IMG/VR virus record: IMGVR_UViG_2541047697_000006
Length of the DNA stretch: 38,591 nucleotides
Strand: one strand, 5' to 3'
From: a virus
Taxonomy: Duplodnaviria; Heunggongvirae; Uroviricota; Caudoviricetes
Numbering within the stretch: position 1 is the stretch's first letter; each line of letters begins with the position of its first letter. The notes beneath the pieces are model-generated. The model ran no database searches, was not told where the DNA came from, and was given only the letters and a program-made list of their open reading frames with translations. This document shows, one piece after another, positions 2,518 through 31,267 of this stretch. The position numbers were made by a program, and so were the translations under genes.

Positions 2518-5103
2518 CTACTCTATCTCTTTTGCTTTTTTAATTATCAATTCAAGCTCTGTTAAACGAGATTCAATACGTTCACACCTTCTTCGCTGGA
2601 ATGCAGCCTCCAACCACAAACATTCATCTGGACGCAATCCCCAACGCTCACCAGCATGTACAACCAGTTCCGTTTCACCAGTATCGTATTCTTCAAAGTA
2701 TTCGTGAACGATGTCTTCTCCTTCAGGGGATTTAGCTATAAATGACACCTTGCGCTGTGCCATTACAGGTTGGTACTCATCATCCCATTTATCATGACAT
2801 AGCAAGCCAAATCTTGTTCCATCTATCCCCTTTGCAAGAAACGCATCTCTTACCTGCTGTGCAATTGCTCCGAAATGCCAACGAGCAGTATCCGAACCTT
2901 TAGCCTTAATATCGGACAACCACTGGTAAACGATAATATTTACGTCACCCCATGCGTCAAGAATTGCATCCTGATCCACCTCCATGATTTCTGAAAGTTG
3001 CTCTACTGTCAGTGGCTTTGTTTTCAATGTCTGGTCTGAAGTATTTATTGCCCCATTAGTTGCATATACTTGCGTCCACCGTTTAGATGATGTCCCACAT
3101 GATGACGTATTATCTTTATTAGCACTTATATAGCCATTAACCTCCGCTGACTGACCGATATACGAATATGAAGATGTTGATAAGGGAGATTTAAATATCC
3201 ATTGAGCATTGGTAAAGTCATAAATACCGGTATCACCTTTTTCACTAACATGAAAAGTTACATTCCGTAACGTATTCTTTGCATCATAACGGGCGGCTTG
3301 TGTTGTTGCCCTCGAAACAGTGAATCCTTTGTCATCAAGGTTTGCCTGCTCTATGACTTCACCACCAGGCATAATTTTACCAAGGCTTAACAAACCAGAG
3401 TTAGTGACAATATCATGGGTTGAATCAATGATAATACCAGGCTGATTTCTTGATGTTGTTTTTACATGCATGACCTGTTGTGGCATTAATGTGTAAAATG
3501 TAGTTTCTCGCCCACTATCACCATCTGGTATGCCATTTGTATTCCCCATTACAAGGTCATACCCACCTGCAATCATACGGAAAAACATTGCTTCTGGTTC
3601 ATATGTAAGATTGCTAACATCTGGCGTTCCGGTATCATTTGGATCTGCTATTTCATAGGCTCTTCCTGCACCTGCCTGTATTTGCTGCACCCCAAGATAA
3701 ACACCATCAAGTGTGTACTGATGCAAATATTTTCTGGTTGAAGAATATGCAGATCCAGCCTGACAAAAATAAATAGCAGTACCGTCACACGCAACTGTTT
3801 GCATATCCCTCACAAAATCGGCAATTTCAAATTCAAAAGTTGCTTCATTACGATAATCGTAATTGTACGCCTGCGGGTTAATAAATTTGCTGGTATCAAA
3901 TACTTTTACATAATAGCGAATTTGATCTGGTGTTGATGGGCTCTCACCAGGGCCAACATAACGTTTTGCTGTAGTAATCAGCCATCGACTCATAGGGTCG
4001 GTGCATAAAACATTTACCTGATTCTCGTAACCATCTTCCCATATGAGAAAAAACTCTGGTTCAATTTCACCACCATCAGTAGGGGTGAATCTGGTGATAT
4101 ACTTTGCGCGATCCTCTCCTTTAGCTGTGCCAGCTAACCCCCATATCTGTAACTGGCCTCTTGTGTTACGAAAACCAACGCGCCCTATGGTTAAACCAAG
4201 ACATTGATGTCCTAATTCTCTACTACCTTTAGTCTCCCAAAGAGGAGTTAACTCTTCATTCCCAAACCAATTATAAGCAACAACTTTATTAACTTCGTCA
4301 CCAGAACTAACGCTGCCACTCACATTTACCAAGCAATAAAGAACACTGTCATAATAATCAAGAACAGCACCCTGTATGACAGTATTTTTAATTGTTGCCA
4401 GTCGCAACCCTGACTTAACATGATTAGGAGTAGAAGGTCTGAAACCTGTATACATCCCCTTTTTTATAGTTTGTATTCTTTTTTCAGTAAAATCAGCATC
4501 TGGCAGTAATCGATTCTCTGTGCGAAAATAGCCATTTATATACTTATTTCCATCAAAAACTTGATCTGTTATATATGTATTACCCCTTAGATCAACAATC
4601 CTTCCTGTGATTTGTTTTTCTAACTCTTGAAAAGATAATGTGTCATCGGTGATGCCATCACCTTTTGCTCCCCATCCGCGAGGGTCAGCGTCATCACGCC
4701 ACCGAGACATCTGCAATTCATGATATTTTTTAGCACCTTCCGGGTCTTCTAATTGTTGTCTTAATTGGTCAGGATCGTACTTAAGCACATTCGGAAAATA
4801 GAACTGCTGCGTACCATATGCATCGTAAACAGCCATAGAATGGCCTTGCACGGTAACGAATTTGGAAATCTGTCCGTTGTATACCGGGTATCCAGCAGCA
4901 TTGATAACGATTGGCTGTGGCACCTGAACATAAGTACCATCTTCTCGTTCCAGATATACTGGAATCTGGTTTTCTGGATTTACCGGATCTGTGTCAATCT
5001 TACCGATATAAATTTTTCCATTTGCTACGGTTTTAAAAGAACTAGCCATTGTGAAGAGTTGCGATGGCATACCTATCACAACATTTGGGGTTATATCAGG
5101 CAT
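2518..5103 (-). CDS. Tailspike protein: P22 gp9-type head-binding N-domain, beta-helix-like central domain, C-terminal intramolecular chaperone (peptidase S74-like) domain
   Basis: N-terminus MPDITPNVV...[21 protein letters not shown]...[13 protein letters not shown]...NVLKYDPDQ matches the P22 tailspike head-binding domain as recalled. [11 protein letters not shown] motif. C-terminus has NTSDQTLK followed by about 170 aa typical of auto-cleaving chaperone domains. Start chosen at internal ATG 5103 (AGGA upstream), not ORF-track start 5196. Confidence 0.85.
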
Positions 5104-5454
5104 ATTAGTCATCCTGTTTGAAGATTTAGATATTGAAGAAAACGGAATGACTGCAGACAACGATGCAATTGTTTTGAAAAATAACCTTCTATTCATTTAA
5201 AAACCATGCAACATGAACAAAACGATTATTTTACAATACTCAAGAATCTTGATCAACAGGCATATTATTTATGCGCTTAATGCGTCACTTACAAAAATAA
5301 AAACAAGTAATACCTTTATTCCTATCGTCCATGATTTTTATTTTCAAACATTATTAAATAACAATTCCTATTTATAATATCTGTCATTTAATTTTCTCCA
5401 AATACAAGGAATCGCCGCAGCATTGCCGCAGTGATGTATTATTAATCAAAAAGA

Positions 5455-5471
5455 TATGACCACCGTGGTCT
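5455..5471. promoter_or_regulatory. Candidate Mnt operator: 13-bp palindrome GACCAC-C-GTGGTC about 65 bp upstream of the mnt-like gene
   Basis: Perfect inverted repeat around a central base at 5457..5469, resembling the P22 O-mnt core (CCACGGTGG) as recalled. Confidence 0.4.
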
Positions 5472-5534
5472 TATTGAGGATGCAACCAACAGATAATAAG
5501 ATGCCGATCCACTCACAAAAGCGAGGCATCAAGA

Positions 5535-5693
5535 ATGGGAAGAGATGACCCGCAATTTAATCTGCGGATATCTTACGAATTAAAGGAAAAACTAAAACAG
5601 CGAGCCAAATCCAATGGCCGCTCTCTTAATTCAGAATTAGTTCAGATAGTGACTGATGCTGTATCAAAGCCATCCAAAATTTCAGGCTATTGA
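5535..5693 (+). CDS. mnt: Mnt-like ribbon-helix-helix repressor, interrupted by in-frame TGA at codon 53 (homology continues in frame to 5786)
   Basis: MGRDDPQFNLRISYELKEKLKQRAKSNGRSLNSELVQIVTDAVSKPSKISGY then TGA then DDAERIADEQSDLVKKMVFDTLKDLYKKPT; matches P22 Mnt (83 aa) as recalled, with Arg at the TGA position. Confidence 0.6.
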   Translation: MGRDDPQFNLRISYELKEKLKQRAKSNGRSLNSELVQIVTDAVSKPSKISGY

Positions 5694-5885
5694 GACGATG
5701 CGGAACGCATCGCTGATGAGCAGTCCGACCTTGTTAAGAAGATGGTGTTTGATACGCTGAAGGATTTGTACAAAAAACCCACCTGACGGTAGGTTAATTT
5801 TTGCATTTACCTGGGCCATATTGACTACTTATAAAATGAGATCAATATTTAATCGCCCAATAACGGGTGTATGTTGAGGTATATC

Positions 5886-6065
5886 ATGGCGAAAAAACCA
5901 GGTGAAAACACAGGAAAAAACGGCGGAATATACCAAGAAGTTGGCCCGCGCGGCGGTAAGAAAGACAATTTTGCCACCGTCAAGGACAACGAAAGGCTTC
6001 CACCAACAACAAAGCCAGGTCATGGCTGGGTATTAGATAAGCGAACTCCAGACAGCAAAAAGTAA
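5886..6065 (+). CDS. Small Gly/Lys-rich hydrophilic protein, unknown function
   Basis: ATG 5886 with GAGGT 6 nt upstream; 59 aa MAKKPGENTGKNGGIYQEVGPRGGKK...; followed by a hairpin terminator. Confidence 0.5.
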   Translation: MAKKPGENTGKNGGIYQEVGPRGGKKDNFATVKDNERLPPTTKPGHGWVLDKRTPDSKK

Positions 6066-6071
6066 TAATCA

Positions 6072-6094
6072 AGCCGGGTCACTCCGGCTTTTTG
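6072..6094 (+). terminator. Rho-independent terminator (stem AGCCGG/CCGGCT plus T-run)
   Basis: agccgg-gtcact-ccggct followed by ttttt, directly after the 5886..6065 stop. Confidence 0.6.
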
Positions 6095-6444
6095 ATATGT
6101 CGCTCGCAGAACTCAACAAGCCTGCTCATTAAGTAGCAGTAAGTCTCGTTGGCTCTTCCTGGTTCAACATCAACACCGACCCTTGAGCAGATATCGAATG
6201 CCATGTGAGCGCACTCATGGGCAATAGTAGATAGTTTGCCATTGAACACGCCTATCACATGCAAAACACCATTCTCGCTGCTCATTGTATGAGACGCTCC
6301 GTTGGCATCCGAGTCCTGCACGTCCACACCAAGTTTTTGATGCAGGCGTTGCCATTCTGGAAAGTCTCTACAAAACACAATTGTACCGCTCTCAAAGAGC
6401 GGAACGAGCATCTTTGGTACGTTTCCAATATTAACTTTTTTCAT
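6079..6444 (-). CDS. Small HEXXH-motif protein (putative Zn metallopeptidase, possibly ImmA/IrrE-like)
   Basis: 121 aa from ATG 6444 (AGGA upstream). Motif IAHECAHMAF with downstream E...ANETYCYLM. No confident family assignment. Confidence 0.45.
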   Translation of the reverse strand: MKKVNIGNVPKMLVPLFESGTIVFCRDFPEWQRLHQKLGVDVQDSDANGASHTMSSENGVLHVIGVFNGKLSTIAHECAHMAFDICSRVGVDVEPGRANETYCYLMSRLVEFCERHIKKPE

Positions 6445-6474
6445 GGTATCCTGCACAAAACTAAGGAGGTTGGT

Positions 6475-6864
6475 GTGAAGCAATTTCTTGCTGCTATGTT
6501 CTTATTCATATCTTTTGGGGCTACAGCAGAGTGCTGGGTCGTTGGAGATATGCGGGGAATAAGCTATTCAGAACGAAATAATTTCCATCCGGAAGAAGAT
6601 GGTTTTAGTGGAACATTCATCATTAAGACAAGCGGTGAAGATGCCAGCATCACATATTCTGGGACAGATGCGGGCGGCATGGCTTACAAAGCATTGTCTA
6701 AAAACTCCATCATAGGAATCGGCGCGAATGGCGAAACTCAACGCGTTATCGACTCATGGGTAATACATCCTACTGGAACAGTTTTAATGTCAAAAACCAT
6801 TTCCGGTTATGGAAATATGGATTCAACCAAAGCTTTTGTTGGAAAAGTAAAAAGAAAATGTTAG
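6475..6864 (+). CDS. Secreted/periplasmic protein, paralog of the cI-coupled gene at 30863..31267
   Basis: GTG start 5 nt after a strong AAGGAGG. Signal peptide MKQFLAAMFLFISFGATA, mature N-terminus ECWVV, C-terminal STKAFVGKV...C. Shares ECW / YSG / YKALS / SW.I / STK.FVG motifs with the 30863 protein. Confidence 0.55.
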   Translation: MKQFLAAMFLFISFGATAECWVVGDMRGISYSERNNFHPEEDGFSGTFIIKTSGEDASITYSGTDAGGMAYKALSKNSIIGIGANGETQRVIDSWVIHPTGTVLMSKTISGYGNMDSTKAFVGKVKRKC

Positions 6865-6888: not shown

Positions 6889-8730
6889 TTACTGCTGTGT
6901 TGCCTCAGTAGCAAACAGCGGTCTGATGGCATTCGCAGCGTTATTTAGCGCTCTTTCATAGGCTGGTGTTCCTGCTTTGGTGTTTGCCAAACGAAGAAGC
7001 ATATTCCTTGCGGCTTTGGACTCATACAAACGCATCATTGCACCAAAGCCAGCCTCAAGCCCCATTGATACTCCAAGAGTCGCAGTTGCGCCAATCGTCC
7101 TTATCCTGTTGGCTTGTGATTGCCCCGTCTGAGTTACTACATTTGCGGTGTCTGACCTTGCTGTTTGCTGTAGAACTTCATGAAGAGCATCAAGCTCTTT
7201 CATGTGCTTTCCAGAAAAAATAGTGTTGTAAATTTCACCGCCTGACTGAGATTTAAGCTTATTAACTTCAGTGATGAACTTGGCTGGAGAGTCACCGGCC
7301 TTTTCCGCTATTTTGCTGACGTAAGCTGCACGCATAGCATCTTTCCCTTTATCATCCAATGCGCTCCAGATTCGTTTCACGTCAGATGGCTTTCTGCTTA
7401 ATACAACGGTATTTATAAGTTCAGGACTGGCTTCACTGCTTGCCTTGTTGAGCTTGTTAGCAATGTTTTTATTAAGCACCTTATTATAAACGTTTGCATA
7501 ATCGGAGTTTGCTTTAAGGTATTTTGCTGCGTCTGATGCACCGAGGTTTTTTGCAACTGCGTTACGAAGATCTTTTGACATTGCATTCTCTACCATATTG
7601 GTAGCTGCTTTTGCCTGGTTGGGGAAGACCATAGCATCTCCCTGAACATTGGATCTAAATGCTGTTCTGTGCTGACGCAAGAGATCAAACGTAACATCCA
7701 AATCAGTTGCAGGGTTTGCTAATTCTTCACGTAGGTTACGCAAGGATGTAAGCAGGCTTTGATTGGCAGACGTCCCAAGCCGTTCCTGTCTTGCGATCGC
7801 TGTATTCAGAGCATTCATGGTATTTGTGGTATCAACTGCGGCATTACCCATTTTATTGGTGACGTCATTGATAACAGCGCCAGCGGCATCCTTCCGTCCC
7901 CTTAACGTGGTGGTCAGAGATTTCACCACATCATCAGGGTTGTACTCACCAAAACGGTCAAAATAATTGCTTACCAGCTTACTACGCGTTGCATATTGCT
8001 CCGCTCGCTTTGAGCCTGTCCCGAGCAAAGCCCCCTCAGCATCCTGAGTAAGTCCGCGAGTGAAAGCATTTTTCGGCGGGATAACATCAGATGTCATTGG
8101 TGTCACGCCCATCGATTCTGATGTGGCAATTTTCTTCGCCACTTCTGGCGCAATATCACCTTTTATAGCCGTTATTCCACGCCCTATTCCCTTTGCTGCT
8201 GCGGAAAGAACACCCTGAGCGGCAAGGTTAACTCCGGCATTTTTAGCTGCATTTTGTGCGAAATCACCTTTCTGATTTGCGGCCTCTGCCAGTGATCCAA
8301 TAGCCATGCTTCCTGCCGTTCCAACTCCTGGAACTAAATACCCGCCAATTGTTTCTCCAGCTTGAGCGTAGGGGTCTGTCGGTCTGTCTACTGGACGATA
8401 GACATCATCCAATACTTTTGGCCCACCAAGCCCCTGACTGATTGCATTAATCAGACTTGCGCCACCCTGCAATACGTCAAATGGTATGTTTACCAGACCA
8501 CGACCAGCCTGTTCTGCAATTTGCCCTGCACTTTGACCACCAGTGAGCCAATCGCCAGCTTGTTGCATCAATGATGGTTCTTCCCGTGTTGGTGCATTAT
8601 TGTCCTGATTAACTGTTTTTTGCTGAACAGCCTGACCAGCAAAATACTCATCAATGGCGGTGCCAATATCTTCCGTGCTCGTACCATCAGGGAAGGTAAA
8701 TGTCTTACCGTTTGCAGTTACTTTCATCAT
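6889..8730 (-). CDS. Ejection (internal virion) protein, P22 gp16-like
   Basis: 613 aa; position and length match P22 gene 16; Ala/Gly-rich. Confidence 0.75.
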
Positions 8731-10142
8731 TCCACCGTAAATTGAATGCCTGATTTTGAGGTATATGATCCAACCTGATTCCGTGGTTCTCCTGAAGGCG
8801 TCGAATCTTGTGCTGGCGCTGCGTCAGTATTCATTGACATATACCGCTTAACGGCACTCCCCAATGATTCACCTTTTTTAACATCCAACCCCAATATCTG
8901 ACCGCCATTACGCGATTGTCCAGGGTTGCCATTCGCGCTCATCCACTCGGCTTTAAACTCATTAAACTGCGCGTTTCGTCGCTCAAGGTTTGCCATTGCA
9001 TCAAGCCATCTTGCGACCGTCTCAGGGTTATCCATGTCAGTTGGCGCACCCTGTCGAACGATCTCAACGTCTTTATCCGTTGCTGGGCCGGGAGGTAGGA
9101 ATTTAAGAACCTGACTGTTAACAAGGGCATTTTGGCGAATGCGCAAATCACGCAATGTCGTATCACTTCCGGTAAGTTTTGCGAACATGTTCTGTGCGTT
9201 ACCGAACAAACCTGTCGTTGGTTTTTCTGCTCTGAACTGTTGAGCAAGCGCACTCATAGAATTGGCTGAGTTTGATGATGCTGTGGCATTGTTTACAGCC
9301 GTCTCGATGCCTTTTTCCATGTTTACTGACAGCTTAGGTGCTTCGCTAATCAACTGCTGAGCCTTTTCCTGCGCTTGCTGCATCTTAAACCCGAACTCTT
9401 GCTGATCCAGAGCCAAGCGTTGTGCTGCGATATTGTGCCCAGTCATTGCTGACTGATAGGAAAGGTTTTGCCCTCTCGCCTGAAGTGCTTCACCAGCCTG
9501 ATTGCTGCGGATTGTTTCTGCCAGCCTGCCTCGGTCAATTTCACGACCAGCCATCTTATCCTGAACAGCAAACGCCTTTTCTGGCCCAAGTGCACCGAGA
9601 GACATAGTAGTCAGCATGTGTGATAGCTGCTCTGGATTCTGGATACCTGTCTGAATCATCCAGTCAGCATTAGCGCCAACGCGATTTAACCTGTCCTTGT
9701 TGTCAGTAATGAATTTACTGTAGGCTTCCGGTCCCTGAGAAAGAGCGACGTTAGCTCTCATGGCTAAATCGCCCATATCGTTGCGTTGCTGATCATTAAG
9801 ACCTGAAAACGCCTGTTGTGCCTGTGCAACAAACGCTGGATTTTCCTGGGCAAACTTAAATAGTCCCGATGGATCACCAGAAGCCCATGCATCAGCATGA
9901 ACCTTATTGAACGCACTAATCGCTTTCTGTTGCTGTTCCTGATTGTAAATATCAGCAACTCCAGCCAGACCACGTAACGCGGTCAGACCAACGTTATTTG
10001 CACCTGATCGAGCCAATTCATTGTTTTCGCGGATCAGACCAAGCGTTGCGTTAATGTCGCTTGCCTTTGGCGCATTCTCATTTTGCGTACCGATGCCAGC
10101 CAGAAAACCACCAGAATTAATACCCTGTTGCCACGTAGCCAT
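8727..10142 (-). CDS. Ejection protein, P22 gp20-like
   Basis: 471 aa, same as P22 gp20; synteny. Confidence 0.75.
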
Positions 10143-10151
10143 GATTACCCC

Positions 10152-10847
10152 TTAAAACAACGAGCCAAGCAGACCAAGACCGCCACCAACAGCGGCACCG
10201 ATACCAGTACCAATACCAGGAACAATGCTGCCAAGTTGTGCTCCAGCAATTGCTCCAGAGGCAGCCCCGCCTATTGCAGATTGAAGGCCGGAAGGTCTAT
10301 TAGCGTTTGCCGCCGCCAGTGCCGCGCTTTGCTGTGAAATCTGGCTCATGTTGTTGGCATATGTTTGCCCGGCGTTTGCCTGTCCCTGAAGAGCGCCAAG
10401 ACCAATATTTGCCAGATTCTGGTAGTTGTTCATTTGTCCAGATAGCCATTGCTGGCCAAGAGTTGGTGCGATTGTTGCTAACTGATTACTGGTTGCGGTG
10501 GAACCTAATCCACCTGTTGCTTCCGCTGCCGCCAGACTCTGATAGCGCGCCTGACCAGCAAGGTCTTTGTACTGCTGAGAGTTGTAATACTGGTTAAGCG
10601 CCTGACCTTGCCCCTCCAGAGACGATAAGTTCTCGAGGCTGCCGACATACTTCTCAGCCAGAGGAGTAAACGGTTTCAGGTTGTTCATGATGGTGTTGAA
10701 CTGCTGATTTTGCAGGTCTGCGGCATACTTCTGAGCTTCTGCTGCATACTTTGCGCTTTTATCAGAACTGCCACCTTTCCCGCCTTTTTCAGGGTAATAA
10801 GGTTCCTCGCCGCGCAGTTTTCTGCCCAGCGTAAATGCATATAACAT
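10152..10847 (-). CDS. Ejection protein, P22 gp7-like
   Basis: 231 aa, Gln/Gly/Ala-rich with Gly-rich hydrophobic C-terminus; synteny. Confidence 0.7.
   Translation of the reverse strand: MLYAFTLGRKLRGEEPYYPEKGGKGGSSDKSAKYAAEAQKYAADLQNQQFNTIMNNLKPFTPLAEKYVGSLENLSSLEGQGQALNQYYNSQQYKDLAGQARYQSLAAAEATGGLGSTATSNQLATIAPTLGQQWLSGQMNNYQNLANIGLGALQGQANAGQTYANNMSQISQQSAALAAANANRPSGLQSAIGGAASGAIAGAQLGSIVPGIGTGIGAAVGGGLGLLGSLF

Positions 10848-29914: not shown

Positions 29915-31267
<1,353 letters not shown>

Follow-up and report, generated by a model that had tools for sequence, protein, structure and literature searches.

The gene examined here, a Hex-family paralog encoding 129 aa, lies in a P22-like (Lederbergvirus-type) E. 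coli prophage in the analysed stretch of 38,591 nucleotides, hereafter referred to as the window (Table 1). It is flanked by gene 16 and mnt and preceded by a region homologous to the P22 promoter PsieA, which is the location of SieA, and is therefore called the slot copy below. The GTG start codon at 6475 follows the AAGGAGG motif after a 5-nt spacer, the TAG stop codon occupies positions 6862-6864, and the encoded protein carries a Sec-signal-like N-terminus, VKQFLAAMFLFISFGATA, directly followed by ECWVV, and ends with a Cys residue. The open reading frame thus agreed in each of these features, ribosome-binding site, start codon, signal peptide, mature N-terminus and terminal Cys, with the original prediction made from the DNA sequence. 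The slot sequence is already present in databases, including many entries labelled 'hypothetical proteins'; Emek orf129, annotated in its record merely as 'similar to Sf6 gene 38', is 98.5% identical to the slot copy and the ST-35 copy 97.6%.

Table 1. Positions of the slot copy, its partner gene and neighbouring features in the window.
Feature	Position	Strand	Description
Mnt-like ribbon-helix-helix gene	5535..5693	+	52 aa
121-aa open reading frame with HECAH (HExxH) motif	6079..6444	-	phrog_1365 (function unknown); divergent from slot copy, in near-identical P22 segment
Counterpart of P22-annotated promoter PsieA	6414..6444	+	P22 annotation and alignment; 1 mismatch, at 6430
Shine-Dalgarno AAGGAGG	6463..6469	+	common to P22 sieA and Emek orf129
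Hex-family paralog (slot copy)	6475..6864	+	129 aa, GTG start, TAG stop; in place of the sieA reading frame in the P22-like prophage
Predicted Sec signal peptide of slot copy	6475..6528	+	18 aa, cleavage between ATA and ECW; from sequence
Mature domain of slot copy	6529..6861	+	111 aa, modelled up-and-down beta-barrel; Cys as second and as last mature residue
Ejection protein gp16	6889..8730	-	75% identical to P22 gp16; convergent with slot copy
Ejection protein gp20 homolog	8727..10142	-	phrog_917, 5e-207
Ejection protein gp7 homolog	10152..10847	-	phrog_598, 3e-98
cI repressor	30234..30866	+	210 aa, 99% identical to 434 repressor; imm434-type immunity region
hex	30863..31267	+	134 aa, 96% identical to phage 434 Hex; ATG overlaps cI stop (ATGA)

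Besides the ejection genes gp16/gp20/gp7, the P22-like remainder of the window contains tailspike, Mnt-like, orf59a-like, cII-like and N-like genes. The immI region (5196-6070) is reduced to the Mnt-like reading frame and an orf59a-like reading frame at 5871-6065, and no arc or ant reading frame is listed in this interval, unlike in P22 and Emek. The adjacent minus-strand frame at 6079-6444, which is probably the gene named hkcC in the literature, is unannotated in the P22 record AF527608, and its start region overlaps the PsieA-homologous region. The tailspike reading frame (2518-5196, minus strand) encodes 892 aa and begins with a 31-residue extension reminiscent of a twin-arginine signal; tailspike profiles start aligning at residue 32 and the upstream ATG is probably spurious, and residues ~618-882 match further families of tailspikes and tail fibres in their C-terminal region.

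Comparison with P22 revealed that the sieA position, to which the gene had been assigned by the original prediction, is exact to the codon. The megablast homology between the window and P22 ends at position 6477, which corresponds to the sieA start codon in the P22 annotation, and a base-by-base comparison of the 300 bp upstream together with the GTG found 302 of 303 positions equal, with the sole mismatch at 6430. Past the GTG, only 18 of 60 coding bases equal P22 sieA, which is chance level, so that the sieA open reading frame is replaced codon for codon. The slot copy is convergent with gene 16, with the two stop codons 24 bp apart, as is sieA in P22. Leavitt et al. (2024, PMC10883804) reported that P22 sieA inserted in single copy with 85 bp of upstream sequence gave exclusion, and within those 85 bp the window differs from P22 at one base. 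A simple consensus promoter scan called no promoter upstream of the slot gene; the promoter was assigned from the published 85-bp fragment and from the annotation of P22. In Emek, as in the window, the slot copy is preceded by the sieA leader, of which Emek has just the last ~34 nt (TGGTATCCTG..CAAAACTAAGGAGGTTGGTGTG) in common with P22 and the window, so that the leader behaves as a cassette junction. The interval between gene 16 and gene 9 has been described as the hypervariable 'ant moron' of P22-like phages (PMC2629481).

The product encoded in this slot shows no resemblance to SieA itself. Identity after the shared GTG is at chance level, the FxRYPxEAxxFNK motif is absent from the slot-copy translation, and the 3-4 transmembrane helices of SieA were not seen, as the sole hydrophobic segment is the N-terminal signal peptide and the remainder is modelled as beta-strands. 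A SieA-like membrane protein was found neither in the gene tables of the 8 slot loci examined nor in the window. According to Leavitt et al. (2024, PMC10883804), whose text contains neither the word 'hex' nor '434', sieA is carried by only 22 of 66 P22-like phages.

The second family member of the window, which is coupled to the repressor gene cI, is hex of phage 434, as judged from the 96% identity of the protein and the 99% identity of the adjacent cI, and thus an already named gene. It occupies the rex-equivalent position downstream of cI in the PRM operon, so that both of the exclusion loci to which the two genes had been assigned, the one beside cI and the one in the sieA reading frame, could be corroborated. 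The slot copy lacks this type of coupling and lies ~24 kb from cI. An in-frame upstream ATG at 30791 would give a 158-codon hex reading frame (30791-31267), which is probably not the real start, since homologs begin at the ATG overlapping the cI stop. The name stands for 'heterologous exclusion', and lambda-imm434 lysogens of Salmonella exclude P22 while hex- prophages do not, according to PMC3564112, which cites Susskind & Botstein (1980). As the cI-coupled copy is this named exclusion gene, the idea of a shared exclusion-type function can draw on earlier genetics for one of the pair.

Pairwise BLASTP aligned the slot copy and the window Hex over their full length at 29% identity (E=1e-12). 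Both proteins also matched PHROG 2651 ('unknown function') end to end, the slot copy with 9e-61 (residues 14-129) and Hex with 8e-59, and a family HMM built from 34 members recovered only these two reading frames from the six-frame translation of the window, scoring the slot copy at 2e-47. The proposed paralogy is therefore significant, with E-values of ~1e-60 for each protein against the same PHROG family and the same strand order in the structural models described below. The internal motifs that had been listed as common to both proteins held in part: Y.ALS, W.I and STK.FVG are shared, whereas YSG is not, with TYSG in one protein standing against VYES in the other. Over the 34 members, C20, W21, G28, D42, Y71, G81, W95, K107 and G123 are invariant, and C129 is nearly so. 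When 1.84 billion representative proteins were searched with a profile, 189 family clusters were retrieved, nearly all of them single-domain proteins of ~120-150 aa. Named members come from Escherichia, Salmonella, Citrobacter, Klebsiella, Enterobacter, Cronobacter, Serratia, Siccibacter, Yersinia and Aeromonas, all labelled hypothetical. In a separate record, Escherichia phage Huey (PQ850609.1), a Hex homolog downstream of the repressor is labelled 'lipid A acylation protein PagP', which is probably a mis-annotation. Scans of both window proteins against Pfam, NCBIfam and PADLOC gave no meaningful match, including none to an immunity or lysozyme-inhibitor family, and the best hit of a sequence profile search of the PDB had an E-value of 0.68.

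Export features recur throughout the family. Scoring of 188 members at the X-Cys-(Trp/Tyr/Phe) cleavage point revealed Ala, Ser or Gly at position -1 in 88% and Ala, Ser, Val or Thr at position -3 in 85%, preceded by a strongly hydrophobic segment with a median 10-residue Kyte-Doolittle maximum of 2.67. The number of mature Cys residues is even, namely two in 108 members and four in 67, and the last Cys lies within three residues of the C-terminus in 156 of the 188. As the Cys is found at position +2, the family cleavage motif is not a lipobox, with one member (cleavage between …SIAS and CW) as a possible exception. This pattern is the signature of Sec export with periplasmic disulfide formation, and a periplasmic location is predicted accordingly for the family. 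The slot copy follows the same architecture, as its signal peptide is followed by a mature protein that starts with X-Cys-Trp and has a Cys close to the C-terminus, and Hex of the window has the mature N-terminus ECWIV after the predicted cleavage.

AlphaFold models of the slot copy (pLDDT 89, pTM 0.78) and the window Hex (pLDDT 86, pTM 0.76) are both 8-9-strand up-and-down barrels with the same strand order. The exported architecture that the original prediction had proposed for both proteins is thereby substantiated by signal peptides, ECW N-termini and barrel models alike. A barrel of this kind could also be read as an outer-membrane protein similar to PagP, Ail or Lom, which would modify the cell surface for serum resistance, adhesion or receptor masking. 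However, the mature domain comprises only ~110 aa and the C-termini are charged or variable (…VKRKC, …GTCNH, …CNPAQTN) and end without the terminal aromatic residue of a beta-signal, which makes an outer-membrane location unlikely. A match to a Pfam outer-membrane protein family is absent as well, and the soluble barrels Cap15, NHBA, avidins and lipocalins score equally well. We thus consider a surface-modifying outer-membrane barrel very improbable.

The only biochemical evidence on Hex nevertheless counts against a periplasmic reading. Shkilnyj et al. (2013, PMC3564112), beyond which further work on hex was not found in the literature searched, gave the protein a cytoplasmic role in which it keeps the repressors of 434 and P22 from being cleaved under stimulation by RecA. 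Deletion of hex led to 30-fold more spontaneous induction, in recA+ cells only, and sHex, a 61-residue fragment (Glu43-Asn103) purified using guanidine, blocked this cleavage in vitro for both repressors (PMC3564112). Over-produced full-length Hex was lethal, which was left unexplained, and a signal sequence, the periplasm or a membrane are never mentioned in that article (PMC3564112). In the numbering of the 158-codon window reading frame, Glu43 falls exactly at the predicted signal-peptidase site between ANS and ECW, and by residue numbering sHex covers about half of the predicted barrel. Toxicity upon over-production is common among exported proteins. Taken together, the start of sHex at the signal-peptidase site, the lethality of the over-produced protein, the half-barrel nature of the fragment and its purification with guanidine make a cytoplasmic mechanism doubtful for native Hex.

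Applied to the slot copy, the published mechanism would make it a cytoplasmic factor that binds the repressor, prevents its RecA-stimulated autocleavage and stabilises lysogeny. The deletion phenotype, the in vitro activity of sHex and the tight linkage of hex-type genes to 434-like cI across genera all speak for this mechanism. Against it, the family-wide signal peptide, the conserved Cys pair and the complete barrel predict export, the phenotype of the hex deletion could come from an effect in cis on the cI mRNA, and the slot copy itself is unlinked to cI, with no cI-coupled member detected in Emek and ST-35. On balance, we regard repressor protection as very improbable for the slot copy.

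The linkage of hex to cI was found in different genomic settings. Klebsiella aerogenes prophages (L009-L011) carry a hex-type gene directly after a 210-aa 434-like cI, with a 4-nt overlap, and their Hex is ~50% identical to that of the window. The cI-hex pair recurs in Cronobacter (L020-L022) directly beside the integrase of a different kind of prophage; the 210-aa 434-like cI and hex are thus kept as a unit across genera and prophage backbones. Slot-type genes 87-88% identical to that of the window are located between mnt and gene 16 of P22-like prophages in 7 of 7 contigs, in two arrangements. The first consists of mnt, a gene for a Rap1a-family exported protein and the slot gene, with the mnt stop overlapping the next start; the Rap1a-family protein (L013-L016, 4650-4985) carries a signal peptide and matches PF18602 (T6SS amidase immunity, E=9.7e-15), and a limited literature search found no paper on a prophage-borne gene of this family. 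The second arrangement, from Salmonella P22-like prophages (L017-L019, 4482-5700), comprises genes for a lipoprotein, the slot protein and an exported protein of 99 aa, and its first gene is preceded by the sieA leader. The two flanking proteins, a 161-aa lipoprotein with an LLAGC lipobox and the 99-aa protein with a signal-peptide-like N-terminus, both lacked a Pfam match. The 161-aa gene upstream of the Salmonella slot copy had been considered as a candidate SieA and was rejected on account of its lipobox.

Among more distant members, one with 46% identity is encoded behind a resolvase gene, and Aeromonas members are found at the edge of integrase/resolvase/restriction islands, which are not recognisable prophage exclusion slots. 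All loci examined belong to, or adjoin, units that are lysogen-expressed or part of a mobile element, and the Hex family is therefore mobile-element cargo. The prophage members sit in units that are presumed to be lysogen-expressed, namely under PRM, behind the sieA leader or downstream of mnt, often together with other envelope proteins.

These neighbourhoods bear on the main rival explanation, according to which the slot protein is a periplasmic immunity protein or inhibitor directed against envelope toxins such as T6SS peptidoglycan hydrolases, lysozymes or bacteriocins, and hence a fitness factor of lysogenic conversion rather than of phage exclusion. The Rap1a-family neighbour present in some prophages points to toxin rather than phage defence, and the Aeromonas island settings count against an exclusion function. 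However, phage exclusion, reported for 434 hex (PMC3564112), is the sole phenotype known for the family, a cognate effector gene was not seen nearby, and the Pfam, NCBIfam and PADLOC scans returned no immunity or lysozyme-inhibitor family. The match to PhiA ranks 34th among generic barrels. An immunity function is, in our assessment, rather unlikely.

The co-occurrence of both genes on one prophage had been taken to suggest a shared, selected function. Among 5426 complete E. coli genomes, 115 contain the slot gene region at a coverage of at least 80% and 207 contain hex, which amounts to 2-4% for either gene; independent assortment then predicts ~4 genomes with both genes. A collinear 25-kb segment with both genes was found only in the near-identical strains A3 and A26, in which it is 99.7% identical to the window; in strain N-01 the match covers 82% of the segment and stops before hex. 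In the 16 phage records that contain a family member, two copies never occurred together, and the only one in Emek and ST-35 is the slot copy. The arrangement of two diverged paralogs is thus rare, but its interpretation as a selected pair was rejected: two collinear genomes in 5426 stand against ~4 expected to hold both genes, and Emek and ST-35 each have a single copy. The pairing looks like ordinary mosaic shuffling without a sign of selection on the pair, and selection acts on each gene singly.

Based on these findings, we propose that the slot copy encodes a periplasmic factor for superinfection exclusion, a Hex-family protein that is expressed from the prophage and hinders the entry of P22-like phages, a reading to which we assign a probability of about 0.5. 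The gene would have entered the P22-like prophage through a recombination that matches the sieA reading frame exactly and would thereby have inherited the PsieA-homologous region together with the sieA ribosome-binding site, from which expression by the prophage should follow. After removal of the Sec signal peptide, which would leave a Glu-Cys-Trp N-terminus, the protein is expected to fold in the periplasm as a small barrel of 8-9 beta-strands, with a disulfide between Cys20 and Cys129 probably tying the first and last strands together. From there it may, like 434 Hex, exclude superinfecting P22-like phages, most plausibly by acting on the gp7/gp20/gp16 conduit for DNA delivery or on the crossing of the cell wall. 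The inferred targets of SieA, gp20 and gp16, are periplasmic and membrane-bound (PMC10883804), so that a periplasmic slot protein could reach them; it would then represent a soluble periplasmic counterpart of the inner-membrane SieA.

A wider proposal, which we advance tentatively and at less than even odds, concerns the family as a whole. Hex proteins may form an unrecognised group of Sec-exported, disulfide-stapled periplasmic barrels that block the DNA delivery of P22-like phages and can be swapped with SieA as cassettes, in which case cytoplasmic repressor protection would be secondary or an artefact of the half-barrel fragment. In the literature searched, no description was found of a Hex paralog placed in the sieA slot by an exact exchange of reading frames, of the uniform export signals and barrel fold of the family, or of the coincidence between the N-terminus of sHex and the signal-peptidase site. 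hex is among the oldest genetically defined prophage exclusion genes, and its sole mechanistic account describes a cytoplasmic repressor partner; the predicted export would reframe how Hex should be studied. The paralog in the sieA reading frame (~2% of complete E. coli genomes; Emek, ST-35) offers a natural test of whether a soluble periplasmic protein can take over the role of SieA, and it suggests an occupant for some of the approximately two thirds of sequenced P22-like phages without sieA.

Among known systems, 434 Hex, whose homolog in Shigella phage Sf6 is gene 38, shares with the slot copy the PHROG 2651 assignment, the arrangement of signal peptide, X-C-W and C-terminal Cys, and the same predicted barrel. 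The two differ in sequence (29% identity) and in location, as the slot copy lies away from cI and PRM in the 'ant moron' region, and the exclusion phenotype comes from 434 hex only. With P22 SieA, the slot copy has the genomic slot, promoter region, ribosome-binding site and start codon in common, and both would be expressed from the prophage and directed to the envelope, which for the slot copy is a prediction from its sequence. In contrast, SieA (types A/B/C) spans the membrane with 3-4 transmembrane helices, lacks a signal peptide and bears its FxRYPxEAxxFNK motif on the cytoplasmic side (PMC10883804), while the slot protein is without sequence similarity to it and is predicted to be a cleaved, soluble-looking beta-barrel. 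The comparison with lambda RexAB applies to the partner copy rather than the slot copy: rexAB occupies the same position as hex, downstream of cI in the maintenance transcript, yet Rex is a two-component abortive-infection system without homology to Hex. T4 Spackle (Sp) is a small Sec-exported periplasmic superinfection-exclusion protein that inhibits the tail lysozyme of the incoming phage. Although it is unrelated in sequence, helical rather than a beta-barrel, and made by a lytic phage instead of a prophage, Spackle would be the nearest functional analogy to the mechanism proposed here for the slot copy.
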